Shown here one piece after another: positions 118-64,000 of a stretch of 64,000 nucleotides of DNA. The notes beneath the pieces were generated by a model. That model worked only from the letters and a program-made list of their open reading frames with translations. It had not been told where the DNA came from and made no database searches. The stretch is from the NCBI GenBank assembly GCA_905178155.1, contig CAJINV010000027.1, forward strand, positions 123,697 through 187,696. Reading direction: 5' to 3'. Position numbers and translations under genes: made by a program. Each line of letters opens with the position of its first letter. The first letter of the stretch is position 1. This DNA is from Amoebophrya sp. A120 (lineage: Eukaryota; Protista; Dinoflagellata).

Positions 118-265
118 TATCCTGTGCAAAAGTATCGTCTTCGTATTGCAGTCATGCATTGCAAGTCTTGTTCTTAAGCTAAATGCGCATTACAAATTTT
201 ATTTCTCATGCAGAGGAAATTGTTTGTGATGCATTTATACGAGTACGATACTTTTGCAGTGCATA
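118..265. mobile_element. Introner family B (TIR TATCCTGTGCAAAAGTATCGT), probably in 5' UTR
   Basis: TIR; DR ccagt/ccagt. Confidence 0.9.
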
Positions 266-297
266 CCAGTAGGTTCATCTTGATCAGTCTGCGAAAA

Positions 298-3200
298 ATG
301 ATCCGGTCCTCGTCGGGCAACAGATGGCTGCCGAAAGGCACGTCGGGGTTGTACTGGTGGCACCTGCACTGTATCCTGTTTCCCATCCTGTTCGACCTAG
401 AAGCTGGTGCTGGTTGGTGCACAGCTAGTAAAAAATCGGTGAGCGTCGTTGAGGCCGCAGCTTCTATGGAGCAGGACAGACACTTCTCGAGCGAAGAGAA
501 AGTATCGAGCTTGGCGCCCGCAATTGAACGTTCCTCGGAGCAGGGAAACGTCGCGTCGTCAATGGGATACGATCCTACGGACATTTGGGATCATCATCCT
601 GTGAAGACGTCGAGCACGAGAGATACATGCGAAATTCGGTTTGAGCTGAAGGACTGGAAGGTGAAGCAGCAACTTCAATGGACTGCGGAGAGAGCGAACA
701 CATCACGAGGACGAGCCTCACTCGTCGACCCGGGACCACAAGCCACCGCCGAAGCCGAAGCCCGGTCCGCGACGTGGCCAGGACCACAGATGGAGACGAG
801 CACCCAACACTGGCTCTTGTCTGCGCTCGAAAAGAGGCGCGAGCGGTTTCACTTCTTGTCAGGGCGGCACTGGCTCCATGTTAACCCTGGAGTGTGGATA
901 GAGAACAGCCGACATCTTTCACGGGAAACCAGTGTCTTCGACGGTCCCCCGAGACAGAGCGTTGTAATAAAAGTGGAGGATGATGAAGATGCCACTACAG
1001 TGTCAGTGAAATTCCAAAACCCAGCACTCATACGAGCAAGTGCAGCTGCCGCTTCTTTTTTAAACTCAACGCTGGCAGATTGGCGTTCCCTTCTTTTCCA
1101 GGATTTCGACGCAGGCCAGGCAGGATACATCTTTCTGGACAGAAGAAGAGCCGGGCTGGCATCGCCGACGATCACCTCACTGAAATCTTTGTGTCTTGTT
1201 TCTTCCAGAACCGCGCCTCGGTTCCTTCTGGGACGTACTGAAGCCGTTGTTCACCTTTTGGTTCAAAGAATCATCTCACCACTCTGGGAACTTGCCGATC
1301 TCCTGCTCCCGACAAGCTCAATACATGAGCTAATTTCGCAGCGCGGATGGGCAAACACGCAGCTCCGCCTGACCACACTGCTCGAAGGAAAACAAATCGA
1401 CCCTACGCAAGAAAAGGAAACAAATAGTCGGAAAGTAGAAGTCCAGGCTTCGCAGCTAATCGAAAGTGGCCGGGGGCGTCGGGGGGTGATCGATGCAGGC
1501 GGGCATGCGCATGGCGCGACGTTCCCTCGAAGCCTCGGCACTATCATCGCAAGGCTTCTCGAAATAGACTGGAACCAGGGAGATGAGTCGAACACGTCCG
1601 GAGCCGCGATTGGTGGTGCACGAGTCCGCCCCTTTGGGGACCCGGCATTTCTCCCGCTGGGAAAGCAGTTGTCGGCCTTGGATTTTGTTCGGCTGCACTT
1701 TTCTACAACAGAAGGGCGCTTTCTGAAATCGGCACTACCGTTTGGCACTTCTCTCGTCGATGGGTTCTCTTTCAGCGGGGCGGACTGCGATTTGAAAACT
1801 ACCGGTTTTCTGGAGGATAAAATTCCAATAAGATTTGGGCGAAGTAAACAGCAATACGTATTTGCAGTAACCTGCGATAAGATCCTCCGCGCAAAAGAAG
1901 TAGAGCACGACGGCGAGGAAAGCGGCTTGCGGACTCTCGGTGGTACTGCGCCAAGCGATATCCTGTGCAAAAGTATCGTACTCGTAGTAATTGCATTTGC
2001 GCATTACAAATCTCTTTCTCAAGGTAAATCAGCATTACAAATTCAATTTGTAATGCTGGGGGAATTTGTAATGCAATTTATACTAGTACGATACTTTTGC
2101 AATGCATAAGCGAGGATAGTTCTGCTGGAGTATTGTGAGGAAAAATCCCCCCTCCCCACATCGAGACGAAGTTTCTGATGCTGGATTTCCGTACACAAAT
2201 GCGCACTGTCTTGCGGTAAGGCATCTTCGCAGCCAGGTCCTCAGTCTAGGTAGGGGCGTTTATTGGGTCTAGTTGTTTAGCATTACGAACGGCTGTCCCC
2301 GAGGCCCAACAGCATGCGAAACCGCTTCCATAATGGCGCGGAAGCCTCTGCACTTGTGTTCTTGCAAGACAGACGTGATTTGTAGTCTCAAATCAGCAAC
2401 ACAAATTTCCGGTAAAGTACCGCTTCGATATTATGCATGGGGAGGGGGGATTTTTCCTCTTAATATGGAGTGAGCCGCGTTGTGTTTTTGTTTGACGCGT
2501 GGGTCTATCAACTGCAAATATGTCTGGGTCTTGAAACTTGTAATGCTGCGTTGGGAATACTAGTGAGTGCTCTGTTAGGCACAGCCAAGCAGGAGAAATA
2601 TCTGCGCTTCTTTGTGTTGCGTTTTTCGCATGACAAACTGCGTCTTACATGACAGGCAAAAGGGTCTCTTCTTGGACACGCGTCACAAACTTTTTGGTCA
2701 TGCCGGACAAGCATGACAAATCTCGCAATCTTCCAGACCCAGACACTTTTGCATTTGATAATAGCCCCCTGCTCAGAAAGGGCAGGCTGCAGCTCGTCGG
2801 CCTTGACATTTACAATCACAAGGACGCGGCTGCGGCACGGTTGCTGGCCGCGGCAAGTGATCAGCCATGCATCCATCCGACCAACAAAGGAAAGGTCGGT
2901 GCCGGCAGCCCCACGGAGTATCCTGTGCAAAAGTATCGTACTCGTATAAATGCAAGTCTTGCATTACAAATCTTGTTCCCAAGGCAAATCTGCATTACAA
3001 ATTTTATTTCTCATGCTGAGGAAATTTGTATATGCATTTATACGAGTACGATACTTTTGCAGTTCATACGGAGAGGATTCGGTTGAAGTCTTTCGTGTGG
3101 GACGCGGCGTGGCCTAGTACAACTTCCAACTTGATAACAGCATATCAAAAGGAAAAATCCCTCCTCCCCAACATATCGAAAACAGAATTTGTGATGCTGT

Positions 3201-6200
3201 ATTTTTTTGAGTACACAAATCGACTTGTATCGCTGGAAGGCCAAGAGCCGCAGTTGTGGCCACCTCGTTTGCAGATGACAATTTGTCATGCTGTTTTTCC
3301 CACTTCCAGCTGCCTCCTGTCATGCTGAAGTAGGTGCAAGGCCTTCCCACGCCACCCAGATGAACTACAGTCCCCCGCATCTTTTCCCTCCTAGCATGAC
3401 AAAGCTGATTTGTGACCACCAACCTGCATCACAGACTTCCGTTTTGATAAGGGGAGGTTTTTCGTCTTGATACAGCAGAAGAGCAAGCTAGCAGTCCGGC
3501 TCTTCCACCACGACCCCTACTAGCGAGCCCGCCAGCTGCCCCGGCCTCCTGTCTGGAAAATAAAGCGTCGACAGTGGCAGCTTTTGGTGCACCTCCTCCA
3601 CACGGACCACCATGTGGTCTAACTGCGGTGGGACAACAAGCCGCGGAGAGGGACATCAAGACGGGCATGACCACGCGCTCCAGTGACATTTTTACCGGCA
3701 ATATGGAGAGAAAAAAGTTTGTCACAGTCACTAAGTTGCAGGGTTGGCATTACAAATTTTTTTTGCATCACAACTTCTCCTTGCATTGCACAAACACTAG
3801 AAAAATCCCTTATGAAGTGTGGCTGTGATGCATTTTTACGCATGACGGACAATTTTGTCTTGCAAAAGTGCCCATGAGTGATCGTGACGAACTTTTTTCT
3901 TTTGATAGGCAATGAGGCTGCTTCATCGGCCGTGGGAGGTTGTCCACGCAGTCGTCGGGGAGAAGAAGCGCAGGGCGCCGCCCACCACAGCAAGGAAATA
4001 AATAGCCGGGCGGACCAAGAAGCAGCTGCTGCAGCCACGACTAGTACCGCAGCCGCCTGCCCCCGTCCTGTCAACCTCCCTGCTTCTTCCCCTGCTGTTG
4101 CCGCCGGTGACTCGGCTGCGACGCCAGCTCGCAGATCCGGTAGTACAGCTAGCAGCGCCGCCTACAACGGGGGGGGTTCTGGTTCTCAGGTTGCATGTGC
4201 TGGCCTGCGGCCCCCAGTTCCCGGTGGCGAAAATGGAGGAGGTGGCTTTGTCCCGCCCTGCGTCCCCCACGTTTTGTCCGTGCAGCAGCGGCGGTGGCTG
4301 ACTGGGCACTTGAATGTCGCAGCAGCAGGGGGGCTCCAATATGGCCTGGAACCTGATGGCCCAGTGCAGCAGCAGCAACAGCCCCCACGCGAACCACATG
4401 GCCCGGGACCTGATGGCCCAGTGCAGCAGCAGCATATGACAGTGCACAACTCCCCCTCCCCCTCATTTGTATAGCATGAATGGCTATACAAGCATCAGCA
4501 AGAATGCCGGTTTTGCATGACAGTTTTGCACTGGAGTGTAATGCTATTTGGGCTACCGGAACTTGTCATGCAAAAAGTGCCAAGAGGCAACGGGTGGACT
4601 AGGTATTTTGCATGACAAATGAGGGGGAGGGGGGGTTGTGCACTGTCATACAGCAGCCGCAGCCCCCACAAGGTGGGCAAATGGATGAGATTGCTCAGCG
4701 CCCAAATGGAGTTGGCCATGGACCCCCTCGTCTTCTACCAAATGTAAAAATGTCTGGGTCTGAAAACTTGTGATGCTGGGTGGCGTCTCATGATGAGGCT
4801 ACAGATGCTGGCTCAGCATGACAAGTTTCTGAGCTCCTAGCTGTTGCCTATTCTGCATGACAAACTGCGAATCTGCATCACAGAAAAACGGGGGTCTTGG
4901 GTAACGTGCATGACAGATTTAAGAGTCATGCCAGGCAAGCATGACAAACATGAATTCTTCCAGACCCAGACATTTTTATCTTCTACCTGCAAACAAAACC
5001 CTTCCAGGGCCAGGGGCTCTCGCGTCTGTCGGCCGGCCCGCCAACGGGACGCCCATCACGACCCACGGGACGCCCATTTCTGGAGTGGTTCTTCGCGACC
5101 CTCCGGGAGCGGGCGGCCCTGCTTCTGTTGCAACGGTTTCGGCTCCACCTAGCAGACCCGCCCGGCCGCAGGTTTGTGAAGAATTTGACACCGTCTGGGA
5201 CCTCATCCGGAGAAGTCCCGCGGCCCTGGAACACGCCAGCGAGGCTTGTATGGCTTGCTCAGATGTTACAGTCTCAAACGTTCTTCCATACAATAGAGTC
5301 GGTATTTTGTATTGCATGATGAGCATGACAGACTCGCAGAGCGTTTCATTTTCTGCAATACAATTTTTCCTGTGCGGTTTGGGGTTCGAAAACTTGTCAT
5401 GCGCATCAATGCTGGGGGACTAGTTGTAGGTTAAATCATCTGCGCTTGGTGCATCACAGATTTTCAGATTCTATCGTGGCGCTTGAGATTTTTGCAACAC
5501 CTGAGCAGGTTATAGCTTGTCGCGACAGCTTCTACCTGGTGCTGGAAGCCGTGCGGTTTGAGGAAGTTCCGATGTTGTCTGGAGGCACGGAGCAACATGA
5601 TGATCCCAGCGACCAGAAACCTCCCCTCGTTTTCGGGCTTCTTCGGTTTGCTTCAACCCGGTTGCAGGACCACGGAGAGATCGTGTTTCCCGCGGTAAAG
5701 CGCGTGGCGCACAATCTCAAGTTCGCCTCGGCGCGGCTGCGGGACGACAAAAATCTGGTCGTGATCGCCGTCACAGGAGGTGTTGGCGCAATGCTGGAGT
5801 TCGCCTCTGCCCGCCTACGGGGTATCCTGAGTAAAAACGTACCCACACCAGAGTCAGGATGAGGATTTTGCAACACAAACCTAGGAGTTTTGTGAGTCAC
5901 GCATGACAAGCTGCACTTTGCAGTGTAGTGCAGGTTAGCAAGTGCAGCCGCATCACAGATTCATCTGCTCATCCTGTTCACAGCATCACAAATTCCAAAA
6001 CACGATTGGAAATGGCTCTCATGGGGATGCGCATTACAAGTCTTCCTGTCTTTGCAAATCTGCATTACAACTCTGGTGTGGGTACGTTTTTACTCAGGAT
6101 ACGGGGAGATCGCGACGTAGTTCGCTTGGCGATCGACAACGAAGTAGATACAACAAACACCGCTCCTCCCCTATCAAATGCAAGAGTGTCTGGGTCTGGA

Positions 6201-8037
6201 AGAATGCAACTTGTGATGCCGCGTTTGGATGTCTAAAAAATTTGTGTTGCATGAGCGGGAAAAGGATTGCAATTTTTGCTACGCGGAGAGGGCATTTGTC
6301 ATGCGGAATAGGCATCGAGAATCCCTCAAAAAACCTGTGATGCTAGGGCATGCATGACAGACATCATGGGTCATGCAAACCGTGCATGACAAGTCTCAGA
6401 ATTTTCCAGACCCAGACACTTTTACACTTGATATCCCCAAGAGGGAGGGATAGCAGACACAAGTAGCGACTGCGTCGCGCTGAAGTTTGCTTCGTCAGAT
6501 TATGCAAGAAAAAAGCTGTGTAAGTGTAAATCTGTGATGCAGAAAATGCAAAACAGTTTACACTTGTCATGCTCAACATGCGTGATCGGCTTGCTTCCTA
6601 TGTGTTTTCCCTTCCTATCTGCGCATAACAAGTTTTTCCTCTCATGGCAGACAAACTTGTAATGCTGTTTTCCCAAAAGACCATACACTAACACAGTTTT
6701 TTTCTTGGATACAGATTTGCAGGCGGACCGGGAGCTGGGCCTGGTTGCGGTGAAGCGGTGCGGCCGGGCGCTACGGTTTCTGGATTTCGTATCCTGTGCA
6801 AAAGTATCGTACTCGTATAAATGCATTACTAATTTCCTCAGCATGAGAAAGAAAATTTGTAATGCGGATTTGCCTCAAGAAAAATATTTGCAATGCAAGA
6901 CTTGCATTTATACGAACACGATACTTTTGCACAGGATATTTCGCGTTGCGTGACGACGACGAGGTGTGCCGAGAGGCGATTGCACAAGACCGCACTGTAT
7001 CAAATGCAAAAGTGTAGTCTGGGTCTGGAAAAGTGTAGACTTGTCTTGCAGATTTTCCATGACCCATAAGGTCTGGAATGCGGGACTTAGCATGACAGAC
7101 TCTGCGAGGTCTTTTCCATGCCTATCCTGCATGAGAAACTCCTTTCCAACTTGGTCAAAAGTGTACCGCTTTTGGCACTCATGCAAAGCAGACTTTTGCA
7201 TACTTCAGATTTACCATGACAAGTTGCAATCTTCCAGACCCAGACATTTTTGCAGTGCATACACTGCCCTTGATTTCACGTCCGAGCGTTTTCGCGACAG
7301 CCATAACCAGGCAGAGCAGAGGGCCACGACCCTTGCCTGGGTGGTTACCGGGGTCGCGATAGGTCTCGCTACTCTGGCGCTCCTGGTCGCTGTGTTTATT
7401 CTGGTGCGGTGGTGCGCGACCAGAAGCGCTGCTGCTGAGCGCTCGCAGGAGAAAGGAGTCGTGGCTGCTGGCCCAGGAAAGGTAAGATTCGATATGCGGC
7501 AGCGTCGGTTTGTCCGGACAAAAGTACTAAAACCTAATGAAGTTTGTAGCCCCGCCGCGGCGCCTCCGTCGGAGCCGGTGGTAGCGCGCAAAGGCCGCAG
7601 AGACCACAGGAATCCCGACCAAGCTGTAGTACTTCTACCGAGCAAGGACAACGACCAAGCTGGAGGAGAACAACGACAAAGGCAGCCAAGTAGCGCACCA
7701 ACAACATCGCAGCAGCCCCCGGCGGCCAATGACAAAGGAGGAGGACGCGCGGGAGGTAATGCGAGCTCCGCTGCAGTTATGCAATGTAAATTAAAATTTC
7801 CCGTACATGTACAAAATGCATGACAAATTTTCGCTAACTTGCAGTGGTCAACTTGTCATGCTAGACTAGGATTGAAGGCAAGTTTTGTCATGCAGAGACT
7901 GCATTTGTACTTGTGCGGGAAATTTCCTGTGGATAGCAGTAGATGCAGAAGATGAAGAAGCACCTGCGGGAAAAATCAAAGAGCCTTTCGTGTTCGATCA
8001 TGCGCCGCAGGTACAACGAACACTACCTAATATTTGA
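298..8037 (+). CDS. Multi-exon gene (~1396 aa after removing 15 introners): DUF4116-like repeats, C-terminal TM helix, possible N-terminal signal
   Basis: Removing each element + 5 nt keeps one open frame (7740-3549=4191 nt, divisible by 3). Repeats such as LKFASARLRDDKNLVVIAV, LEFASARLR|GDRDVVRLAI, LKFASSD|LQADRELGLVAV span the junctions; TM LAWVVTGVAIGLATLALLVAVFILV. Start and last exon uncertain. Confidence 0.75.
1959..2108. mobile_element. Introner family B
   Basis: TIR; DR agcga/agcga. Confidence 0.9.
2131..2465. mobile_element. Introner family C (TIR TAT..AGGAAAAATCCCCCCTCCCC)
   Basis: TIR; DR tggag/tggag. Confidence 0.9.
2506..2760. mobile_element. Introner family A (TIR TATCAAATGYAAAAATGTCTGGGTCTGGAA)
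   Basis: TIR; DR decayed (gggtc/atagc). Confidence 0.85.
2919..3068. mobile_element. Introner family B
   Basis: TIR; DR cggag/cggag. Confidence 0.9.
3143..3472. mobile_element. Introner family C
   Basis: TIR; DR cagca/cagca. Confidence 0.9.
3702..3907. mobile_element. Introner family F (TIR TATGGAGAGAAAAAAGTTTGTCAC)
   Basis: TIR; DR ggcaa/ggcaa; sibling at 20496. Confidence 0.9.
4435..4650. mobile_element. Introner family G (TIR TATGACAGTGCACAACTCCCCCTCCCCCTCATTTG)
   Basis: TIR; DR cagca/cagca; sibling at 17006. Confidence 0.9.
4736..4978. mobile_element. Introner family A, right TIR missing ~9 terminal nt
   Basis: DR tcttc/tcttc. Confidence 0.85.
5249..5514. mobile_element. Introner, singleton (TIR TATGGCTTGCTCAGATGTT)
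   Basis: Imperfect TIR; DR gcttg/gcttg. Confidence 0.85.
5823..6101. mobile_element. Introner family E (TIR TATCCTGAGTAAAAACGTACCCACACCAGAGT)
   Basis: Perfect 32-bp TIR; DR cgggg/cgggg. Confidence 0.92.
6172..6433. mobile_element. Introner family A
   Basis: TIR; DR tcccc/tcccc. Confidence 0.9.
6501..6711. mobile_element. Introner family I (TIR TATGCAAGAAAAAAGCTGTG)
   Basis: TIR; DR cagat/cagat. Confidence 0.88.
6790..6938. mobile_element. Introner family B
   Basis: TIR; DR tttcg/tttcg. Confidence 0.9.
6998..7261. mobile_element. Introner family A
   Basis: TIR; DR cactg/cactg. Confidence 0.9.
7778..7935. mobile_element. Introner, singleton
   Basis: Imperfect TIR (aaatttcccgtacatgtaca / tgtacttgtgcgggaaattt); DR gcagt/gcagt. 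Confidence 0.85.
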
Positions 8038-8228
8038 AGATCATAGAACATTTTTTGCTTCAATACTACTTCCAAACAAGACTTCTATTGCCGCGACGGT
8101 GGCCTTGGAAGATGCCGAAAAGGTGAGAACTACCTCAACGAGCTGAAGAACGAGTTGGCCTATGGTTTTCATCTCCCAGATTCTTGTTGCTCGATCTTAT
8201 GAGGGGCCAACAGTTCTACTTTTGATCC

Positions 8229-11200
8229 ATGTGTGCTGTTGTTCACCGTGGAAAGGCGTCAGGATGCAGGAGCCACAATAAAATTTATTTGAAACAAGTA
8301 AAACTCCACTCGTCCTCCCAACATTCCCAATATACAACAAAACAGACCTCCGCGGGGAGAACAAATAACTCGGATGTAGTTGAAAGCAGCCCGGATGATG
8401 TTGTAGTCCTTGAAGGTGGCAAGAATGCAAGCATTATGCCTTGGACGGTCGTTAGCGTACAGAAGGGTGAATTTGTATTGCATGACTTGCATTTAAGTAC
8501 TTAAAAGAGAAGTGCGCTAGGTATTAGACACACGAGCCCAAGCATCCCGCATAGCGTGAAGGGCTGCTCGTCGCGTGGTGGCGCTTGCAGGACCGAAAGA
8601 AGTGGTCTTGCGGGGGCTCGCTCGCCGGGCTGTGTAGTGCGTATGTACCCAAAGAAGGTGGGTCGGGTGGCTCTTACTCTTCTGCGCGTCTGCCTGAGAA
8701 GTTCCTCTCCGGAATTGTCGAAAGGGAGGGCGACGCCTGAACACACGGGCACTAGTTCAACATGTATGCCCTCGCGAGTTGTGGTTGGCTCGGCTTCGAC
8801 TTGGATATCTGGGAGCAGCCTCAAGTGGAAGGGGAGGCACGATTCGGCCGCGGACGGTAGCTTGCTTCGCCTGCTGTGCTCTGCTCCCAACTCCCCAGGC
8901 GTGTTTTTGCCTCCGGAGCGAGGCCTTTTCGACGTGACCCCAAGGTCAGGATTTCTCTTGGTGAATTTTGGGGCTTTTTGTTTTGGCGACACTTTTTTGA
9001 AGCCCCAAAACCCGAAGTTTCTCGTGCGTTAGCGAATTTTGAATAGGCACCTCGGGCCAAAATTCACCCACGGTTTTTTCAAAATTCACCCCAAAATTCA
9101 CCAGGCCCCCCTTTTCGACCGTGATAAGCAAACTTTAGCGCAGAAAAGTGCGCAAAGAAGTGCACAGGTAGGCTCTGGGAAGTGGGGCCGAGGAGAAAAG
9201 ACAGGCGCCCGCTGTTGCCCTCAGCGCCTCTATATTCTGCCGAAAAGGCCTGGAGAGTTCACGCGCCTGCCGGATAGACGCATCAAAGCTCTCGGCCGGG
9301 TCCTTTCACCTTTGCTTCCGCGCCTTCCTCTTGCCTAAACTGTACTTATGTGCTTCGCGGCTCTTGTTTTTGGCGTCTTTGCCGCGGCTGCTGCAGTGCT
9401 TGCTCTTTTGCAAGCACAGGAAGACGAAAAGATATGGCCAAAGAACGACGCCCAGGCCATGTCCAGCTGCCCGCCGCATAAGCCTGGACAACTTCTACAG
9501 TGTGCAGAACCGACTTCCCAGAAGGGCAAAAGGGACAATGTCCCGGCAGTCTCCTCTGCTATTTGTCATGCAAAATTCACTACAAACTCACCACTTCTCA
9601 TGCTGACGGGTGTTAAAGCTCTAGTGAAAGCAGCCCGGATGATGTTGTAGTCCTTGAAGGTGGCAAGAATGCAAGCGTCGCGCCCGGCGTAATTGTTGAA
9701 AATGCCCAGGAGGTCGTGGGCGACCGCCTACTGGATGAAACGGACGTGGTCGGCTGCGTGGACGAGCGGCCAGGAGAGCAGCAAGAAGTGGCGCAGAAGG
9801 TGAAACTCAGGCCGGCGCCCGACACTTTCCCTCCAACGTCCGCGGCCAGACTCTTTCCAGCAACGGGCGCTAGAAAACAGCACTACAAGCCTCCTTGCAG
9901 CAAGGCCGGACCCCCTCCGCCCGTGCAAAACTTCCGCACGGTGAAGGGCCGGCCCGCCCGGGTTCGCGTGTACGAAGCGCGTGACGAGGACGAGTCGGAC
10001 GACGACGACGGGGAGGGAAATAACAAGAAAACACGACGTATCCGGTGTAAAAACGTCCCCATAGTCAAGATGGGAAATCTGCTAGACAAATCAAAGAGCT
10101 TTCGCTGTTTCGCATGACAAGTTTCTTGCCCTCATACTAGTGTGATCCTGTTTAGATTAGTTTATCAGCATCACAGATCCAGCGCATAGCGTGCTGATTG
10201 CAGCATCACAAACTCCAAAACACGACTAGAAAATTATGCTTCTCATGGGGCTCCGCTCGAGAAACTTTTTTGGCATGCAGATGTGCATGACAACTCTGGA
10301 GCGGGGGCGTTTTTACTCAGCATACGACGACCAGCGCAGGGCCGTTGCTTCGTTATCAAAATGGAGCAAAGGGACCACCCCGTGGTGCGGAAGAAGGTGA
10401 AACGGAAAGAGCAGAAGGCAAAACATGCTGCCGGAGGTACCCCAGATCTTCAAGGACGAGTGCAGCAGCTGCACCTCCAAAGGCAACACGAAATCGTTGG
10501 CACGGCTGCCCCCATAATATCCACCGTGAAATATTAAATTACGTCCCCACGATCCCAGAGTGAAGATGGGCATTCTGCTGCCGGGCATGACAATTTTGGG
10601 TCTTATTAAGTCGTGAAGTAGATGCTGGACTACGAGTTCTACCGAAGTCACATCACAAATCTAAATGACACGTTTCATCCTGATTAGAGCATGACAAAGT
10701 TGTTCTCCCAGATAGCATTTTAAAACTCCCGTGGTCATGGGGCTCCTGCTGCGCATGACATGAAACTGCGTCTGAAGTTTTTTGCAGATTTGCGTTTTTG
10801 ACAAACCTGGGGTTCTTGGGACGTATTTGCATAGGATAGCACCACGCCGAGCCACTTCAAGGACACGCAGCGCAAAACTGCCAGTACTACCAGCAGAAAA
10901 ACAACGCCGGTGGACAAGCCCTGATATCATCGCAGCAGCATCCGCTACATTCCCTCCAGGAGCCGGTTTTCGCTAGCGGCGGCTCCCGAGGTGGAACAGC
11001 AGCTGTGCCCACGACGCGGCTTGGGAAACAGAACGGCTATGAAGCAGCTGCGCTGGGGCTGCACCGATACGACATAAGGTACGAGCAGGGGCAACTTCGC
11101 TGTGTGCAAGGACGAGGTGCCCCGCGGCCCACGGTATGGATTGCAAAGATGTCTGGGTCTGGAATGAAGCTGGAACTTGTACCATGTGCGTGTCTTGCAT

Positions 11201-12991
11201 AATTCCTGTGTAAAATCTGTGTTATTTCCTGAGCAGCATATGAGCAGCTTCCTTTGTCATGCAAGAACGCAATTAAACGCAATTTGTAATGCGTGCTAGG
11301 CACGACCATCAGAAGGCGTCTCAAAAACTTGTCATGCTTGGCTGCCTCCAATGCTGCAAGCGCTTCAAAAATCATCCGCAATTCAGCACCACAGGTTCTT
11401 TCCAGACGACCCACACATATAATTTGCAATGGCATATTACACAGGGCAGCAGGCATTGTATGGATGTGTCAGGATTGAAATCGACAAAGTTGAAATAACT
11501 TGTAATGCATAAAATGCATGAAAGTTGTGACCCAGTTTCTAAGTGGCGCATGACAAATTTAGGCAGAGCCGGAATCCAGTTTGTCATGCTGTTTGGGTAA
11601 GAAAGACGCCTTTTGTCATGCTACTTTAGCAGCTCAGTTTCTATCCGTCAACAGGCTTGCAATCTGCCTCACTTGCCTACTCTGCAAGACAGGCACTTTG
11701 AGGGCTGCACTTTATGCATGACAAACTATTTCAACTTTGACGATTTCAAACCTGACGCTTCCATACATTGTCTGTCGTGCTCGAGGAGGATTCAAACTCC
11801 GCCGAAAGTAAAGTATCATTTGTAAAAACGTCCCCACCCCAGAGTCAAGATGGGGACTTTGCAACACAAACCTTGAAGTTTTGGGAACCACGCATGACAA
11901 ACTGCAGGCTGTAGTGTAGTGCAGGTTAGCAAGGACAGTCGCATGACAAACCCATCTCCTAATCCTGTTTACAGTATTACAAATGCCAAAACGCGATTGG
12001 AAATGCCTCTCATGCAGATGCGCATTACAAATGTTCCTGTCATTGCAAATCTGCATGACAACTCTGGGGTGGGGACGTTTTTGCTCATGATATAAAGCTA
12101 ACGCGACCCTATGTCCCGAGCAGGTGGCGCTTGACAGGGAGTTCGAGAACTTGTGTCGGGCCCAGGCGCTGCCCTGGCAACAAGGAGGGCTGGAATTCGA
12201 ATTGGACCACAAGCAAGAAGAAGATGTGTATGCAAATGCCACGGCACCGGAACTGAGTGGCGGCTCTAGTGGAGGTGTATTGCTGTTTGGTGAAGAATAT
12301 CCTGTGCAAAAGTATCGTACTCGTAGTACTTGCAGTCATGCATTACAAATCTTTTTCTTAAGGTAAATCCGCAGTGTAAATGCGGATTTACCTTAAGCTG
12401 AGGAAATTTGTAATGCATTTATACGAGTAGGAGTACGAATACGATACTTTTGCAATTCATAAAGAATTTGAAGATGGTCTTCAAGAACGACCCCCCGAAG
12501 GTCATTCTTCTTCAGCGTTGTTTCCAGGGCCGCCGCACCCCAGTCTATGCAGCGAGTTCCAGCGAAAGAAGGATTCAGGGGACAAGAGCTGCATGGAGAA
12601 TAAAGATTGTTCCGCGCCACCGGAGCAGCATTGTATTCGCCAAGATCATCATGCTAATTTCGATGGTCTTGACGCAAAGATGAACATACAAACCGCGTCT
12701 GGAATAAATGGCCGTTCGGGGGTGACGAATTTTAAAGCCAATCCTGTCGTTCCTCAAGTTGATGTACACGATGGCATGAAGATCATCAGCCCTAGTGCGC
12801 CGCCGGAAGGGAAGATGAACAAAGACCTCCTGCTCCTCGGGAGCAGCGGGAAGATATTCACCCGCCCCCCGCCTCACTCCCCGCCGCCCCCCCTGGCAGC
12901 ACACGATTACTCCACGTCCTCTTTTGCGCCGCCGGAAACTGTTGAGGAGTGGGAAAAGTTACAGATGCTTCGCGGGTACCAAGAGTATTGA
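8229..12991 (+). CDS. Multi-exon hypothetical low-complexity protein (6 introners plus a 1.2-kb insert)
   Basis: ORF pieces 8229, 9716, 10283, 11005, 12124 and 12518 join in frame after removing the elements; stop TGA 12989-12991; no recognisable domain; start uncertain. Confidence 0.55.
8433..9624. mobile_element. 1.2-kb insert flanked by a perfect 52-bp direct repeat
   Basis: 8381-8432 = 9625-9676; starts ATTAT, ends CTAG; degenerate subterminal inverted repeat. Confidence 0.7.
10039..10324. mobile_element. Introner family E
   Basis: TIR; DR cgacg/cgacg. Confidence 0.88.
10518..10838. mobile_element. Introner family E-like, degenerate
   Basis: Degenerate TIR; DR lost, but element + 5 nt restores frame. 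Confidence 0.7.
11135..11436. mobile_element. Introner family A-like
   Basis: TIR; right end uncertain by 3 nt (DR cacgg/cacag). Confidence 0.8.
11459..11765. mobile_element. Introner family D (TIR TATGGATGTGTCAGGATTGAAATCGACAAAGTTGAAATA)
   Basis: TIR; DR cattg/cattg. Confidence 0.9.
11814..12092. mobile_element. Introner family E
   Basis: TIR; DR taaag/taaag. Confidence 0.9.
12298..12461. mobile_element. Introner family B
   Basis: TIR; DR aagaa/aagaa. Confidence 0.9.
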
Positions 12992-15003: not shown

Positions 15004-16209
15004 AATTATCTATAATGCTATTGCAAAAATTCTGGCGGGCGGGGGGGTGCAAGGTGCTAGCAGAAATGCTGCTAGCGGAATCGTGCTAGCAGAAAAATGA
15101 GTACTAGTAGAAATCCTGCTAGTGTTTTTAGCGTTACAAAAAAGCGCGAGAGGTACTAGTAACAGGCGCCACTAGTGAAGGCGCCCACTAGTGGAGACAC
15201 TAGTGACAAAAAGCCCGACTTTGGGGAAAGCGGAAACACTAGGGGGAAAACCCGCCAAAGTAAGTGGGAAACTCGCTCGGAGGGAGACGCGCGCTGCCCG
15301 GCCCCCGGGTGGCCTTCGGCCCTGCCTGCCGTGGTCTGGGCCCGTGGCCGTGGCTTAGATGCCTGGCGGTTCGCGTACGTTTGGCTGCCCCAGGCTGAGG
15401 TCGCTCTGCATTCTGGCGCCCCTCCCCCTTCCACCTCTGTTGCGAGGGCTCTCGCGTCAGTTCGCGCCTTTTTCTGCCGTGTGTGGCTCGGCAAGCCGGA
15501 CTCCGTCGCGTGCTCACTGCCGACCGCGGGGGCTCTTCGGCCGCGTCGGGGCGGTCTGATTTTGCCACGTCTCCTCTGGATTGCCAAGCATGCTCTCGGC
15601 CTGCCTCTTTACGGCTCTCCCCCTATGCCTGTTTGCTGGGCCCTTCTCCTTTCGTTCCCAGCCAACGCTTTTTGCTTCGGCCCCTGCCGTGGGCTTTCGC
15701 TTTGGCCTTCTTGCTTTTTTTTTGGGGGGGCTGTCTGGTTTCTAGCAAGAACCACCCGCAGCACCTCCCCTGCCTTCCCGCTGCGGCTGCCCTGCCGCCC
15801 TGCCTGCCCTGCTTTATCTTTGCTGGGTGCCGGCAGTGTTTCTAGCCTTTCGGCCGTCGGCGCGCTTTTTTCGTGCTGTTTCCCGCTGCTAGCCTCCCGA
15901 GCCTCCGAAAAGGGTCTGCGCACGCTCTCCGGCGGCTCTGTTTGTGGGGGCCCGGGCAGGGGCTGCGCCCAGTGCCCCCGCACGCCCCTCGCACCTAGCG
16001 GCCTTGCCTCTATGTGCGCTTCCTTCGCTCCCGCCAAGGGAGAAGGGCCGGGCGTGGGCGCTGCCGTTTCTCTTTTTCGCACGCTGGTCGCGCCAACATA
16101 GTTTCAGCATGTACGGCTGGCCACTGGCTGCCACGTTCTTTTCCCCTCGCCCCCCCTTGCACCCCCTCGTCGCCGGGCCGGCGGGCGCGGAGCGACCGCC
16201 CGTTCTAGA
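15004..16209 (+). mobile_element. GC-rich non-coding element with hairpin + CTAG 3' end, flanked by a 32-bp direct repeat
   Basis: 14972-15003 = 16210-16241; homologous to 44882-45935. Confidence 0.85.
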
Positions 16210-40970: not shown

Positions 40971-41040
40971 GTCAGGTTTTGGTCTAGTTGGTTGCAGTCT
41001 ATAGTTCTCTTGGGTAAAAACAGGATCGCGAGTGCGAGAA

Positions 41041-48966: not shown

Positions 48967-49476
48967 AAAGTGCCCCCAGGACGACCCCAGAAGCAGAACT
49001 CGGCAGCATTTGCATTGCAAAGCCTCGTTACGAAAACACTAGCCACACTTTGCAAGTATCAGACAGCAGCGCCACAAGTTTTCAAAGCTGCATAGCATAA
49101 GCTACTTGCTGTTGCAAATAAAGAGCCCAGCAAAAGCCGGGCCTCTCATGTACTAAAACCTGCCTTGTCTCAGTGTCGTGCCTAGATTCTGACTCATAGC
49201 GGTCCAGTCATCTTGCCAGACAAAAACTTTCCGTTTGGACGAAAAATCTCTGCAGCAGAAACTTTTGCAGCTTCCGGGGTAGAGATAGGGCACTTTGCAT
49301 TGTAATAGGCCAATCTACTATCAAACGAAAAAAGTGTTACAGTTACAAATTTCTCAGCATGAGAGAGAAACCTTGCATTGCAGAAATCCTACGGGAAAAC
49401 ACGTAGGAAACAAGGCTTCTATGCAGATCCGGCATGACAGAGCTTGTCTGTCTTGCTATGCCTGCAACACAGTGTG

Positions 49477-52463: not shown

Positions 52464-52563
52464 NNNNNNNNNNNNNNNNNNNNNNNNNNNNNNNNNNNNN
52501 NNNNNNNNNNNNNNNNNNNNNNNNNNNNNNNNNNNNNNNNNNNNNNNNNNNNNNNNNNNNNNN
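52464..52563. other. Assembly gap (100 N)
   Basis: N run. Confidence 1.
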
Positions 52564-54090
52564 TTCCACCAGGAGCTATCAAATATAAAAATGTCTGGGT
52601 CTGGAAGATTCTGACACTTGTCATGCACGTTTTGCATGAGCCATGATGTCTGTGATGCGTACCCTAGCAATACAGATTTTCTGAGGGCTTCTTGATGCCT
52701 ATTCCGCATGACAAATGCCTTCTCAGCGTAGCAAAAGTTGCATTCCCGTTGGTACTCATGCAATTATACAGATTTTTTTGGAATCCAAAAACAGCATGAC
52801 AAGTTGCAGTTTTCCAGACCCAGACATTTTTGCATTTGATAGGAGCAGGCGTACAGCAAAAAGGCACCATCCTGTACTGGCGTTGCGAGCAAGGACATAT
52901 CGGAGGAAAAATTTCTCCTTCCCATATCGAAGCGGTACGCTTTAGAATATTTGTGTTGCGGATTTGTGGCCACAAATCTTTTTGTCTTGCAAGAAGGCAG
53001 CTCCATAGTCTCCGCCACATTGTGCAGGCGGTTTGTGATGCTGCCGGGACTACAGCGCGGACATTTGTGATGCTAAGCGTGTGCGTCAGAAGCTCTCCTA
53101 CTCAGGCACGGCGTATGCCTCCTGTAGTCCCCTACTGCAAGACAGCTCTGATTTGTGTGCGCCCATCCAGCATCAGAAACTTCGTTTTGATATGGGGGGG
53201 GGGAATTTTTCCTTTCGATGGCACAAAACGAGACAGCAGGTCCAGGTGGAGAAGACGACGAAGAATCTCGCGGAGCAGGCGAAAAAGTCTGAGAAAGAGG
53301 TCGCCGCCCAGAAGGAGCGCGCCCGGGAGATCACGAAACAGCGCGACCTGTGGTGGGATCGAAGAAAAAACGCCGATGCGGAAAGCAAAAGCAGCGCGTT
53401 TTTGAAAGCCCAGCTCGCGGGGAAGAGCATGACCAGTTCCGACGTGTCCAGTGTGCCGATGCTGGGGCGGGGGACGGAGAAAACGAAGGGGCTGATTGTC
53501 TTCGACGAGCAGGACGAACTGGAGGTCGCGACGAAACACAATTCGGATGCAGCTGCCTCCAGCGGTGCGACGGCGTCTGGCGGTGGAGCCCAGAGTAGTT
53601 CCGCCGGTAAAGTAAACACAACTGGTGCAGCCGCCGGTGCGGGGAAATCATCGGCAGCGAAAGGACCATCGAAAGTCGAAGCTATGTACGCGAGACTGCG
53701 GGCGAAGCGGAAAGAAGTAGCGGATGGCGAGACGGGCAATGTATCAAATGTAAAAGTGTCTGGGTCTGGAAGATTCTGACACTTGTCATGCACGTTTTGC
53801 ATGAGCCATGATGTCTGTGATGCATACCCTAGCAATACAGATTTTCTGAGGGCTTCCTCATGCCTATCATGACAAATACCTTCTCAGCGGAGCAAGAATT
53901 GCATTCCCTTTGGTACTCATGCAATACAGATTTTTTTGGAATCCGAACGCAGCATCACAAGTTGCAACACTCTTCCAGACCCAGACATTTTTACATTTGA
54001 TACAATGCGGGTGGAAACGATCCTGCTGGAGGCGGTCCCATGAACGCGAAACGCGCGAAGTTGGAAGAGGCACTACTTGCGAAGAAATGA
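52564..54090 (+). CDS. 3' part of a charged, coiled-coil-like hypothetical protein, truncated by an assembly gap (3 introners)
   Basis: FHQEQAYSKK...KDKTRQQ...ETGNAGGNDP...LAKK* is open after element removal. Confidence 0.55.
52577..52841. mobile_element. Introner family A
   Basis: TIR; DR ggagc/ggagc. Confidence 0.9.
52898..53220. mobile_element. Introner family C
   Basis: TIR; DR ggaca/gcaca. Confidence 0.88.
53742..54002. mobile_element. Introner family A (close sibling of 52577)
   Basis: TIR; DR caatg/caatg. Confidence 0.9.
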
Positions 54091-54504
54091 ATTCTACGGA
54101 AATAAATTCAAACTACCAGCATGAAGAAATATTACCATCGTGGCGACGATCTTCAGTTTTGATATTGCACGATGATTGTTTTACCACTAGCGCAGTTACT
54201 ACAGACACATAGTACACGCACTTGATGTGGTGCGCGTAACACGGGAAAGAGCTCTTTGAGAACAATCGTAGCCATCTTCACCGTGTTCATCTTCTGTTCG
54301 ACTCGATGAAAACAATTCCTATTTGTAAGCTTCGACTGTTTTGCTGGTCCAGCAACGTGAGGACATAATTGCTGCGTTTGTTTCTTTCCTTGTATCATAA
54401 GCTAAAAAATGTGAGTCGCACCTCTACGACCTAGTGCGGACTGGTTGTACTGTGCTTATCTCTTTACAGCACCGGTGAATCAATTTTCTTCTGGTTTCAC
54501 CAAA

Positions 54505-55416
54505 ATGTTGCGGCGTGCACCACATGTAGCTCATGTCTTTTGCGATGTGGAACCACGGCCTGCACTAAAACTGCTCTCTAGTGAAAAGCAGGATCTGCTC
54601 CTTCCTGGAGCCACCGGTCGTGGGGCATGGAGATGGGGCCGTAGAAGTAGCAGGACGGCGCTCTGTATAGTACCAACACCTGCGTCGACCACCACCGCAA
54701 GTAGATCGGTGCCGAGACTGACTACGACAAGATTTCTTGCTTCATCAAAACACGACCCCGGGACGGCGCCGTCGACTAGGCAACCTGAAGACTCAAAACA
54801 GAACCTCCAGATGACGGCTGACGAAAGGAGCGCATTCTACCGACAGGAGGCAGAGGAACGGAAAGGCAGCAGCCGGATTTTCCGGGTGGAAGCGGCGAAG
54901 AATCAGCGGAAAGTTTTGCCGGACGTGGTGCTCGCGAGACTGCAGCTCGAACGCCTGTGCCAGGAGGGAGAGCTGGCGCTGATTCAGGAGGACGTGCGGG
55001 AACAGTACGTGACGCTGGAAAAGATCGACTTGATTTTGGATTACGAGAAGAAAAGCGATACTGGGGAGCAAGTTGAACACATCAACTTTATCACGACCAA
55101 GGAGGAAAAGCACGAGCTCCTTTATCCTGTGCAAAAGTATCGTACCATACTATGTAAATTGCATTACAAATTCACTTAGCATTACAAATTAAATTTGTAA
55201 TGCGGATTTGCCTTGAAAGGGAGATTTGTAATGCATAAACGCAATCAATACGAGTACGATACTTTTGCAATGCACATCCTTGTCGGTCACGCGATCAAGG
55301 CAGACATGCTCTTGGATTTTTACCGCACTATCGCAAACGGTTCGAGCTCATCTGTAGTACGTGAAAAAGCGGCGAAATGTCACCGATTGATCGAGGAGTT
55401 GAAGAGAATTAAATGA
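54505..55416 (+). CDS. 250-aa hypothetical protein with Arg/Ser/Thr-rich N-terminus (possible mitochondrial presequence), 1 introner
   Basis: Spliced length 753 nt; KHELL|VGHAIKADM joins in frame. Confidence 0.6.
55123..55276. mobile_element. Introner family B
   Basis: TIR; DR tcctt/tcctt. Confidence 0.9.
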
Positions 55417-56917: not shown

Positions 56918-57179
56918 TATCAAATGTAAAAATGTCTGGGTCGGGAAGGATCCGAACTTGTCATGCAGATTTTACATGGCCCGTGACGTCTGTGATGTAT
57001 TCCCTGGCATCACAGATTTTCCGAGTGCTTATTGATGCCTATTCCGCATGACAAATGGCCTCCCCGCGTAGCAGCAACTGGACTCCTCTTGCTGGTCATG
57101 CAATACAGATTTTTCTAGAGTCTAAAGGTAGCATCACAAGTTCCAACCCTTCCAGACCCAGACATTTTTACAGTTGATA
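56918..57179. mobile_element. Introner family A
   Basis: TIR; DR gggat/gggat. Confidence 0.9.
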
Positions 57180-57215: not shown

Positions 57216-57478
57216 TATGGATTGTAAAAATGTCTGGGTCTGGAAGATTGCCAGGTTTGTCATGCATATTTTGAATGACCCATGATGTCTGTGATGCATG
57301 CCCTAGCATCACAGATTTTTAGAGGGCTTTGTGATGCCTCTACTGCATGAGAAATGCCCTCTTCACGTAGCACAGACTGGAGTCCTTCTGCTGGTCATGC
57401 AACACAAATTTTTTTAGAATCCAGAGACAGCATTACAAGTTTAGAATCTTCCAGACCCAGACATTTTTACATTTGATA
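57216..57478. mobile_element. Introner family A
   Basis: TIR; DR cgcta/cgcta. Confidence 0.9.
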
Positions 57479-57963: not shown

Positions 57964-58109
57964 GAAAAAGCTCGTCCTCCGCTCTTTTTTCGCAACAAAA
58001 AAAAGTAGTACAGTTTGTTTTACCCTCTGTAAAAGGAAAAAGCTCGTCCTCCGCACTTTCTTCGCAACAAAAAAAAAAGTAGTACAGTTTGTTTTACCTT
58101 CTGTAAAAG
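57964..58109 (+). repeat. Tandem duplication, ~72-bp unit x2
   Basis: gaaaaagctcgtcctccgc...ctgtaaaag occurs twice. Confidence 0.9.
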
Positions 58110-59498: not shown

Positions 59499-59598
59499 NN
59501 NNNNNNNNNNNNNNNNNNNNNNNNNNNNNNNNNNNNNNNNNNNNNNNNNNNNNNNNNNNNNNNNNNNNNNNNNNNNNNNNNNNNNNNNNNNNNNNNNN
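59499..59598. other. Assembly gap (100 N)
   Basis: N run. Confidence 1.
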
Positions 59599-60303: not shown

Positions 60304-63300
60304 ATGACGCGTTCTCCGGTAACCCCTCCCGGCGCGGTTTCTGGTGCCAGCGAGGCGGTGCGGCAGCACAACGAAAAATTGATGATGGCCAACAAGAAGT
60401 GCAAAACAGGCCTTTTCGGAGGTGTCTCGGTAGTTGCGAAAAAGTACTCTCCCGCGGTCGTGATGGTAGTCGCCGTGGCGTACTACTACTTCTCTACCCT
60501 CAGTCAGCACCCAGACTCCTTGCCGGAGCACGAGGTAGTCGTTGTAGACCACGGAAATAAAGTAGACAATTCCACCGCGATGAATAAACCAAGCACAGAC
60601 CCATCAACTTCAACAACTCCGTTCGTATTGCGAGATGAAAACTACAAAAACCACACGACGAACGACACAGCTTTGAGGAAAATGATGGACAACAACAAAA
60701 CCCGGAACACGACCACTCCCCTGGACGCTTACCTCCTCAGCATTCTTGCCGAGCAGCAGAAGTACACAAACCTGTTCACCTGGCTGAAAACCGACTGCTA
60801 TCATAGTGAAAAAAACCACCACAACCCCATATTCAAAAGACATAATTTGTGTTGCTGGTTTTGGGTACACAAAGGAACTTTGTATTGCAGCAAGATCTTG
60901 TCGGCATATTCAGTAAGCCCATTTTTTGGGTACTACGCATCCGGCTAGTGCAGCTGAGCATGAGAAACAAGTCTGACCTTAGGCGAAAGCGCATGACAGA
61001 CTTGCTGCACACTGCGCCACATGGGTGCAGCCGTTTGCGTTGTACGCAAGACAAAGTAGCGGATTTGTCGTCACAAATCAGCAACACAAATTCTCTTTTC
61101 GATATGGGGAGGGGGGATTTCTCCTTACGATAACTGCAGCGCGGTCGGCTTGGACAACGTCAGAATCGGATACGCAACCTACTTATCAAATGCAAATATG
61201 TCTAGGTCTGGAAACCTGTGATGCTGATTTGCTGCTGGCTGCAACGCTTGCCATCGCAGCCACGCATAACAACTTTTTGAAACGCCTTCTGATGATCATG
61301 TCCTGCCCGCATTACAAATTTTTGCGTTTTCGCATGACAAAGGAAGCGGCGCTTCTGCTGCTCACGCAACACAGATTTTCTAGGAATTCAAGACACGCAT
61401 TACAAGTTCCACTCTTCCTGACCCAGACGTATTTGCAGTTGATACGAGACCGCTAGAAAAAAAGCTCCTATGCGCGGACTTGTGGCTGCGAAAGATTTGC
61501 GCGCCGGAGAGGACATTGCCTGCATTTCAAGGATATCAAATGTAAAAATGTCTGGGTCTGGAAGAATGCATGTTTGTCATGCTTGTCTGGCATGACTCTT
61601 GAATATGTCATGCACGTTACCCAAGAGCTCTATTTTTCTGTCATGCAGAAACGCAGTTTGTCATGCAGAATAGGCAACACCTAGAAGCTCAGAAACTTGT
61701 CATGCTGGGCCCGCACTTGTGGCCCCATGTTGATACGCCACTCAGCATCACAAGTTTCCAGACCCAGACATTTTTGCATTTGATAAAGGAAGTGCTGGCT
61801 CGGCCCGATCAATATGCCGAAGCGGTACGAATATCAAATGCAAATGTGTCTGGGTCTGGAAGATCTGTCATGCTAGTCTGGCATGACTGTCAACTCTGTA
61901 TTGCGTGCCCGCATCAAAGAGCTCCTCTCACCTGTCATGCAAAAATGCAGTTATTTCTCATGCGGAGTACGCAACTCTGAACCACGGAAGAACTTGTCAT
62001 GCTGGGCAGTGCATTACAGTGTGCTCACTATTTCCTTCCTTGCATCACAACTTTCCAGACCCAGACATTTTTGCAGTTGATAACGAAATGTTGACGAAGA
62101 AGTACCCGGAGGAGTGTTCGACTCGGTCCCCGTTCTCCCTTTGGGTCGCAGAAGAAATGGCCCAAAAGCGCGAAGCTTCGGCGTTTAAGCACTATTTTCC
62201 GATGCTGATGTCCGCGGAAGACTACCTGCGCTATCAACTGTAAAAGTGTCTGGGTCTGGAAGGTTGGAACTTGTGATGCTCACTTTGGATTCTAAAAAAA
62301 TCTGTATTGCATGACCAGCAAGTAGAGAGGTCTCGCTTCTGCTACGTGGGGAGGGCATTTGTCTTCATGCGGAGTAGGCATCAGGAAGCTCTCGAAGAAC
62401 CTGTGATGCTAGGTCGTGCATTACAGACATCCCGGGGCATGCAAAATATGCATGACAAATCTCAGAATCTTCCAGACCCAGACATTTTTACATTTGATAT
62501 GCGCAGCGGTCACCCCATGTACTGGCTGGACGGTGCTGCGCGCGAACTCCGGATCAAGCTGCAGCGGAGGAACAGCACGGAATATCCTGCCCAAAAATCT
62601 CTCCACACCATAGTCAAGTTGGTAAGAGAGTTGTGCATGACAAGTTTCCATCTGCAGTGTAGTGCTGGTTAGCTAGGGAAACCGCATGACAAAGCCACTT
62701 TCTAATCCTGTTTACAGCATTACAAATGACAAACACGATTGGAAATGCCTCTTTTGGAGATGCGTATTACAAATGTTCCCGCCATTGCGCATTGGCATGG
62801 CAACTCTGGGGTGGGGACGTTTTTGCTCAGGATACGGAAGGAGGGAAAATGGAAAAGCGTACACAACAAAACGCGGCAAAAACTACAACAAGCACCGGCA
62901 AAAAAAATGAAGAATATCTAGTGCAAATATATCTGGCTCTGGAAGACACTAACTTGTGATGCTAAGTCTACACAATGTAAAAATCTGTGTTGCATGACTG
63001 CCAGCAGTTGTCCACTTTTGACCAAGTTGCGAGGGAGTTTCTCATGCAGAACCGGCACGGCAGAGATGTCGCAGAATCTGTCATGCCAGGTCTTGCATTC
63101 CAGACCTCATGGGTCATGGAAAATCTGCATAACAAGCTTCCACGCTTCCAGACCCAGACATATTTGCATTTGATAAAACAACGGATGCAACGACGACTAC
63201 AGCGGTGCATCTTCTCTCCAGCGAGCAAGAAGACTCCGTCCGCCCCTGGATGCCACCGCACATATCAACTTGAAAAGTCCCCCCTCCCCATACTCAAGGG

Positions 63301-64000
63301 AAGATTTATTGTGTAGCATGATTTGTGATCACAAATCACGTTGTCATGCTAGAAGGGAAGTAGAGATGCGGATTTTGTAGTGCTGGCTGGCGTAGGAAAG
63401 CCGTGCGCCTTGAGCACGACAGGAAGCTGCAACTGGAACCGGTAAACAGCATAACAAATTGCCTGCAAACGAGGTGGCCACAACTGCGTCTCTTGGCCTT
63501 CTAGCAATACAAGTCGATTTGTGTACTCAAATACAGCAACACAAATTTCGTTTTCGATTTCGACGAGAGGGGAGATTTTTCCTCACAATAGCACATACAC
63601 CAGAGTTACTGGCTGGAGTACCGGATCAAACCCTTGCGACGGTGCTACAGTATCAACTGCAAAAATGTCTGTGTCTGGAAACTTGTGATGCAAGAACGGG
63701 AATAGTGAACTCACTATAACACGCTGCCAAGCATGACAAGTGTTTTCCATGGCTCTGAGTTGCGTACTCTGCATGAGAAACTGCGGTTTTGCATGACAGG
63801 GAGGAGGAGCTCTTCGCGGCCATGCAACACAGAGTTCAGAGTCGTGCCAGACAAGCATGACAATTCTCGCAATCTCCCAGACCACCCGGACATTTTTGCA
63901 TTTGATATACAGGAAGTACCTGCAAGAATACACCCAGGAAGACGGGCTTTTTTGGGGGGACGAGGTCATCCCCATCTCCGAGACCCAAAACTCGCGAGGA
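60304..64000 (+). CDS. SET-domain lysine methyltransferase (SETD3/SETD4/Rubisco-LSMT-like), partial; N-terminal hydrophobic anchor; 9 introners
   Basis: Spliced motifs LFTWLK, MRGLVAAKDLRAGEDIACIS, LWVAEE..SAFKHYFPML and HPMYW follow the LSMT-type SET order; frame is open to the window end. Confidence 0.75.
60799..61132. mobile_element. Introner family C
   Basis: DR actgc/actgc. Confidence 0.88.
61184..61444. mobile_element. Introner family A-like
   Basis: TIR; DR decayed (ctact/cgaga). Confidence 0.85.
61534..61785. mobile_element. Introner family A
   Basis: TIR; DR aagga/aagga. Confidence 0.9.
61832..62082. mobile_element. Introner family A
   Basis: TIR; DR acgaa/acgaa. Confidence 0.9.
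62232..62499. mobile_element. Introner family A
   Basis: TIR; DR tgcgc/tgcgc. Confidence 0.9.
62583..62834. mobile_element. Introner family E
   Basis: DR cggaa/cggaa. Confidence 0.88.
62915..63175. mobile_element. Introner family A
   Basis: DR aagaa/aaaca. Confidence 0.85.
63263..63590. mobile_element. Introner family C
   Basis: DR gcaca/gcaca. Confidence 0.88.
63651..63907. mobile_element. Introner family A
   Basis: TIR; DR tacag/tacag. Confidence 0.9.

Follow-up and report, generated by a model that had tools for sequence, protein, structure and literature searches.

Transposon-like introners of Amoebophrya sp. A120 are very probably removed from RNA at a fixed register

The stretch of DNA analysed here, which we call the window, comprises 64,000 nt of Amoebophrya sp. 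A120 (contig CAJINV010000027.1, positions 123,697–187,696, forward strand) and carries 74 short elements, 73 top-level and one nested, that bear terminal inverted repeats (TIRs) and in all likelihood are the introners described from this organism by Farhat et al. (2021; PMC7789003). Each appears to leave the transcript together with five flanking bases, one upstream and four downstream, and we regard removal from RNA at this fixed register as highly probable. Most of the elements lie within plus-strand open reading frames (ORFs); two intact ones (56918–57179 and 57216–57478, no strand assigned) lie where neither strand has a long ORF. Every modelled gene between 64 and 64000 is on the plus strand, like the unidirectional clusters reported for Amoebophrya, and the genes and elements below are all given on that strand.

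The first gene (298–12991) matches the database protein P0122 (1971 aa, with a DUF4116 repeat) and holds 22 element introns: 1959–2108, 2131–2465, 2506–2760, 2919–3068, 3143–3472, 3702–3907, 4435–4650, 4736–4987, 5249–5514, 5823–6101, 6172–6433, 6501–6711, 6790–6938, 6998–7261, 7778–7935, 8435–9625, 10039–10324, 10518–10838, 11135–11436, 11459–11765, 11814–12092 and 12298–12461. Another element, at 118–265, lies upstream of the ATG at 298, and the frame is open across it. The only canonical GT-AG intron found in the window, at 8011–8345, is also in this gene and in P0122, and here the expectation that no GT-AG intron would be needed fails; its 3′ end is A-rich, has no pyrimidine tract and also carries an A at position −7 (n=1). 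The predicted spliced length of 4191 nt could be reproduced but is not that of the whole gene, since P0122 runs on through 8011–8345 and 8435–9625 and places the end of element 4736 nine bases beyond the predicted one. That element has lost its 3′ ATA; according to P0122 its intron is 4735–4991, with family length and A−7 preserved, and the perfect 5-bp repeat at 4979–4983, nine bases early, goes unused. Element 8435–9625 is a degenerate 1.2-kb element intron that starts TAT, ends AGT and has an A at −7; its ends are hardly complementary, yet P0122 lacks it. The 3′ ends of these two elements were fitted from P0122, the A at −7 itself not being fitted. Coding sequence is tandemly duplicated on either side of the latter (8383–8432 and 9626–9676), with both copies present in P0122. 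A supposed remnant element at 6149–6452 was dropped, its 42 nt being present in that protein.

The gene at 25072–30478, which joins cytochrome b5, MOSC_N and FAD/NAD reductase domains, holds eight elements (25220–25537, 25589–25867, 26165–26399, 26702–26963, 27363–27614, 27914–28166, 29099–29361 and 29456–29762), and its eight-junction model is identical to P0001 over 1065 of 1065 residues. P0001 was found with the last exon of this gene, and its source names it Amoebophrya sp. A120; the identity indirectly bears out the claim that the elements are removed from the message. At the protein level P0002, P0003 and P0005 are colinear with the P0001 model across the junctions, and they have the same unusual domain fusion. 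The gene at 60304–64000 matches P0121 (a SET match is weak, below the cut-off) and has nine elements: 60799–61132, 61184–61444, 61534–61785, 61832–62082, 62232–62499, 62583–62834, 62915–63175, 63263–63590 and 63651–63907.

A MORN-repeat gene at 16827–22235 has seven elements (17006–17232, 17320–17631, 17689–17999, 18190–18470, 20157–20427, 20496–20701 and 20740–21001), whereas its 1.2-kb MORN-repeat exon (21009–22232, 69-nt period) is element-free. The ORF at 32536–35169, for which no database protein was found, has five (33020–33258, 33321–33529, 33745–34059, 34108–34443 and 34586–35036) and that at 35566–39234 has seven (35951–36100, 36157–36477, 37096–37430, 37536–37681, 37771–38036, 38337–38641 and 38688–39076), the last of which encloses the nested element 38779–39044. 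The nested element requires no splicing of its own and, beginning with CAT, is the only catalogued element with an altered first T. Four elements interrupt the ORF at 41005–45011 (41456–41715, 41804–42071, the 1259-bp 42205–43463 and 43812–44079), four that at 47329–49318 (47513–47775, 47798–48125, 48204–48593 and 48956–49307), three that at 52564–54090, after a gap (52577–52841, 52898–53220 and 53742–54002), and one the 753-nt gene at 54502–55416 (55123–55276). Besides the length of 753 nt, the predicted spliced lengths of 3480 and 3198 nt were recovered, as were the rebuilt motifs LGL|PCGYH, W|IQP and D|GKRHG; exons had been expected to be as short as about 20 nt, and the shortest internal ones have 17 nt.

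Our first detector looked for a 20-nt inverted repeat with a 5-bp flanking repeat and made no prior assumption about TAT. It gave 55 matches in the window, 45 of them TAT…ATA, and 2–5 matches in each of six composition-matched control sequences, with no TAT…ATA in any of the six. Completed by family-end searches and checks by hand, the catalogue reached the predicted number of about 74, with TAT…ATA ends in 65 of the 74 and 0, 1, 2, 3, 4 and 5 mismatches in the 5-bp repeat in 51, 10, 7, 1, 3 and 2 elements, respectively. Among 56 high-score elements, a set preselected for a near-5-bp repeat, the perfect flanking repeat is 5 nt long in 50 and 3, 4 or 6–10 nt long in none. A repeat-blind detector was applied to a second set, 134 loci (L001–L134, about 0.56 Mb) of another assembly that came from a scan of assembled contigs, and found a perfect repeat of 5 bp in 290 of 375 elements, of 4 bp in one and of 6 bp in none. 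The window’s element families are also present in these loci, among which there are no orthologues of the window’s genes; elements are retained in two assemblies. From both sources we built a set of 360 oriented elements, made up of window elements and 293 of the 421 from the loci; it omits loci elements with more than two repeat mismatches or without a strand call, and four window entries (4736, 6149, 56918 and 57216). The automatic detector recovers 60 of 73 hand-called window elements, and its strand calls are correct in 57 of 57 called ones.

The end common to all families is TATSAA.TGCAAAAT. Across 146 element ends T, A and T occur 142, 145 and 140 times at the first three positions, and A at positions 11–13 occurs 119, 126 and 136 times; in the 360-element set, TAT is kept in at least 706 of 720 ends at each position. 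Element lengths in the window are spread evenly over the three frames, so the elements cannot be read through. Both orientations are used, with a significant orientation bias in none of 12 families, and no clear target-site preference was found. The 287 perfect-repeat elements have 242 distinct target-site duplications (TSDs). Non-coding, dispersed copies with TIRs and a constant-length TSD of varied sequence are features of miniature inverted-repeat transposable elements (MITEs), and the predicted MITE-like origin is supported. GT-AG occurs at no register in any of the 73 top-level window elements and at the fixed register in 7 of the 360, which sets them apart from U2-type introns with GY…AG. 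Some repeats seemed to be shifted by 3 nt; one reflected a wrong 5′ end (48232 rather than 48204), and at 11135 P0122 obeys the terminus rule.

It had been proposed that each element is excised with one copy of its repeat, that is, as the element plus 5 nt. The constant length stands: removing it leaves no internal stop at any of 70 junctions in 11 plus-strand ORFs, and the product of the viable offset fractions over these junctions is 10^-20.7 (in the ORF at 41005–45011, a single combination of offsets out of 81 is viable). The rule itself served to set the ORF limits, which makes this test partly circular, and taken singly just 18 of the 70 junctions are forced. What is removed, however, is one base upstream and four downstream, so that the intron reads N-TAT…ATA-NNNN, and of the two repeat copies the exons retain four upstream bases and one downstream base. 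Where the copies are identical the junction is masked; where the repeat has decayed it becomes visible. Measured against three database proteins, keeping four upstream bases gives no differences from P0122 (22 element junctions), P0001 (8) or the first 396 aa of P0121 (9), while over these 39 junctions keeping three gives 3 differences, keeping five gives 5, and keeping fewer gives 9–10. The register holds at 2506, 10518 and 11135, where four or five of the five repeat bases differ. Since it does so, and since the perfect repeat at 4979–4983 goes unused, the repeat itself is apparently not read; as judged from these sequence comparisons, the cut is measured from the end of the element.

Independently of annotation, a conserved His64 (in 8 of 8 aligned relatives) of the 25072–30478 gene requires that at least three upstream repeat bases be kept, and at 61184 retaining two or three produces a stop. 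Junctions in the loci weakly favour four or fewer (through a Met of the DUF285 repeat in L009, and through PseB-like MRGGE, not MPGGE, in L036), while the hydratase junction in L018 gave no register call, its alignments ending short. At position 4 codon likelihood prefers the upstream base (+0.29±0.13), and all 64 NT-NN boundary classes occur among the 360 oriented elements. Weighing against the assigned register, codon likelihood cannot tell four from five bases kept, that P0121 and P0122 rest on transcripts is deduced from how A120 models are described as having been made, and the 3′ ends of elements 4736 and 8435 owe their place to P0122 itself. A stop-codon test on 68 mismatched loci junctions came down to a single case and is uninformative on four versus five. 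Table S4 of Farhat et al. (2021) and the splice-site counts of Gozashti are compatible with the register and were left uncounted, since aligners can slide within the repeat. We rejected a trend for ageing repeats to acquire AG/AC at the 3′ end, which appeared in the window (9/19 versus 8/48, p=0.014) and vanished in the loci (8/54 versus 33/239, p=0.83). Among 68 mismatched loci elements, repeat position 3 (intron −2) is mismatched least, 15 times versus 24–28 elsewhere.

The two ends of the elements are not conserved alike with respect to transcription. Departures from T, A and T number 1, 1 and 12 at transcript-5′ ends versus 9, 4 and 2 at 3′ ends (360 elements; p=0.0005), and the same asymmetry is seen in the 287 perfect-repeat elements (p=0.013). 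U+2, A+3 and A−7 are each present in 73 of 73 window elements, including the two that lack ATA, and A−7, found in 358 of the 360 oriented elements, is under strand-specific constraint. U+2, A+3 and A−7 are conserved while their hairpin partners A−5 and U+4 drift, substitutions in the interior are not biased by strand, and the transcribed-strand stem has no excess of G·U (223, versus 218 A·C), a null result rather than proof. Together these observations point to U+2, A+3 and A−7 acting as single-strand signals at the RNA level, not through stem pairing. Of the two modes of recognition originally suggested, that by the ends is supported, but that by structure is unsupported, given the G·U count and the variable partners. 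Of 60 terminal positions scanned for strand differences, positions 21, 40 and 55 stood out, possibly through family structure.

U+2/A+3 match a GUR 5′ splice site minus its G. Miniature transposons would insert with 5-bp target repeats in either orientation, each would leave the transcript as N-TAT…ATA-NNNN, and a relaxed spliceosome would read U+2/A+3 at the 5′ end and use A−7, counted from the intron end, as its branch point. As the ends are mirror images, either could give the 5′ signal and the opposite one the A−7, which falls within the range of the fixed branch positions, 6–8 nt from the intron end, given for Yarrowia, Giardia and Trichomonas in the pertinent part of PMC2483917. We consider it reasonably probable that the elements are MITEs whose splicing falls to a relaxed spliceosome, with A−7 as the branch point. 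In favour of a spliceosome, Farhat et al. (2021; PMC7789003) list most spliceosomal proteins and U2, U4, U5 and U6, though not U1, in A120 and give RNA-seq support for the introns, and in Fritillaria transposon-derived non-GT/AG introns are processed by a spliceosome. A broader proposal has about even chances: A120 would possess a type of intron, N-UA…A-N6, in which neither the first nor the last base is set and a single transposon end provides both the 5′ signal and the branch adenosine. Several features speak against branching at A−7: it is surrounded by no branch consensus (U is at −9 in 180 of 360), the U-run lies upstream of it, the terminal G pair is absent, in 65 of 80 folds TAT is base-paired with ATA in the predicted hairpin, which would hide both signals, and the strand asymmetry depends on 29 departures.

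A separate or non-spliceosomal machinery might instead cut at set distances from the terminal hairpin and join the exons, as proposed for the euglenid nonconventional introns, which according to part of PMC11282704 leave as circles. TIR positions 8–25 are paired in 75 of 80 predicted folds, the 1+4 offsets would amount to a staggered cut beside a stem with free terminal bases, and U1 was not found in A120 by Farhat et al. (2021; PMC7789003). Positions 4–7, however, are paired in just 44–76% of folds, and the balanced G·U and A·C counts, the retention of U+2 and A−7 beside drifting partners and the loss from P0122 of the poorly complementary element 8435–9625 all make such a machinery rather unlikely.

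All families share an internal 12-mer, GCATBACAARTT, exemplified by TGT-V-ATGC / GCAT-B-ACA at 29141–29148 (plus strand), 43 nt into element 29099 from its 5′ end. It was counted 217 times versus 1.7 in shuffles, has a density of 11.5 per kb in elements and 0.05 in exons, and is in 70 of the 73 elements catalogued at that stage; it starts mostly 33–34 or 41–44 bp from either element end, its spacing is 31–33 bp in 323 of 908 cases, and its columns diverge less than other interior columns (0.049 versus 0.126). This prevalence, fixed placement and low divergence could mean that the motif is itself the splicing signal, a branch site or the site of a dedicated factor, that positions the cuts, and GCAU-N-AC resembles a UnAy branch motif. 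We hold this to be improbable, since the sense-strand form is absent from 35 of 360 elements, the motif A is no better preserved close to 3′ ends (12/194) than its mirror counterpart close to 5′ ends (8/194), and a spacing of three helical turns suits DNA binding. Because it shows no strand asymmetry and its sense form can be lacking, the motif is likely a helically phased transposase site.

The elements thus likely spread as MITEs, and a single transposase may move all families by way of the TAT-N7-AAA end and the phased motif; the 5-bp TSD fits an integrase-type enzyme. It counts against this that no transposase was found. The window and the 134 loci gave no autonomous element with the same ends. 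The longest autonomous candidate, L067 476–2934, has a 2.2-kb insert with a 415-aa minus-strand ORF that matches nothing in Pfam or the Atlas.

Ciliate internal eliminated sequences are bounded by TA, keep one TA and are excised from DNA strand-symmetrically. The ends of our elements also start with TA, but no TA is kept, the TSD is 5 bp, and the register and the conserved bases track transcription despite both element orientations; with the elements retained by two assemblies and introns supported by RNA-seq in the relevant text of Farhat et al. (2021; PMC7789003), removal from DNA, by such elimination or by somatic excision, is very improbable. The least credible account is that standard splicing takes place at cryptic GT-AG sites close by, or at positions that vary with the direct repeats as guide. 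In 32 of 72 elements an in-frame GT..AG pair does lie no more than about 12 nt from both ends, and the Fig. 3 legend of Farhat et al. (2021; PMC7789003) terms the sites variable; however, 40 of 72 have no such pair, one register fits the database proteins at 39 of 39 junctions, repeat-less ones included, and the relatives are colinear across them.

Other features of the window lie between the genes. An unpaired element 5′ end at 49319 is followed by about 3 kb (49319–52563) in which a direct repeat, located near 49483 and 52370, is interrupted by an N gap; this may be an insert resembling a long-terminal-repeat (LTR) element within an element intron that unites the ORFs at 47329 and 52564, in which case a 6-nt exon would remain at 49312–49317. 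A GC-rich 0.9-kb intergenic repeat is present at 15291–16211 and 45043–45937 (68% identical, no Pfam match), and element-family fragments without intact ends lie at 23834–23994 and 45950–46078. Rfam gave no matches in the window or in the 14 of the 134 loci searched, and two viral matches were dismissed as chance 19-mers.

A fixed register converts the open question of how these published introners are spliced into a direct test, with three bases (U+2, A+3 and A−7) and one motif as mutation targets; the shared 12-bp motif could also serve to fish out the missing transposase. One grammar for all these introns would supersede the “no splice signature” reported for Amoebophrya introners and would correct gene models in a genome whose introns are about 65% non-canonical (Table S4 of Farhat et al. 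2021, PMC7789003). If the spliceosome removes the elements, neither terminal G would be required for splicing in the Amoebophrya lineage; and if N-UA…A-N6 holds, any element of the transposase family, wherever and whichever way round it lands, would be spliced out perfectly, and the tens of thousands of insertions in coding sequence would thereby be explained.

The phenomenon is real and its class already published, as predicted: P0001, from A120, equals the spliced model, and the elements have the traits of the introners that Farhat et al. (2021; PMC7789003) describe, in the portions concerned, as supported by RNA-seq, about 240 nt long on average, with inverted repeats starting TAT-N7-AAA, as here, and direct repeats of 3–5 nt, one example having 5 bp. 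Like those introners, ours are absent from the message, as P0001 indirectly indicates, and non-GT-AG (GT-AG in 0 of 73). The splice grammar is apparently undescribed; we found no statement of the fixed register, the A−7 constraint or the motif in the literature searched, though Figs 3, S23 and S25 of Farhat et al. may show part of this grammar. The same portions give splice positions as variable or unknown and repeats as variable, and argue against general mobilisation by a transposase, whereas here the register is fixed, the repeat is 5 bp and a phased motif links all families. Gozashti 2025 (PMC12130899), as far as its pertinent text goes, treats the introners as TIR DNA elements, with A120 family 38 having a 5-bp TSD, TA/TA termini and Ginger-like affinity, and other families, in the rows covered, TSDs of 2–6 bp and mixed splice-site mechanisms, with no common rule given there. 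Ginger2/TDD elements (Bao et al. 2010, PMC2836005, in part) are integrase-type, and TDD-4/5 make 5-bp TSDs as here, but their termini are TGTNR and not TAT. Other introners draw GY/AG from the TSD (PMC9860276, relevant part); the Amoebophrya elements need neither. In the portion of PMC11282704 on borders, euglenid nonconventional introns share TIRs, TSD-like repeats and non-canonical borders with our elements, but have a CAG/CTG stem consensus and circular products, where we see TAT/ATA and no sign of selection for RNA pairing. Alike in their working are the transposon-derived non-GT/AG introns of Fritillaria borealis, handled, according to part of PMC13326754, by a modified U2 spliceosome; those introns prefer AG/AC, AG/AT and YAY termini, whereas in Amoebophrya both terminal bases are free.

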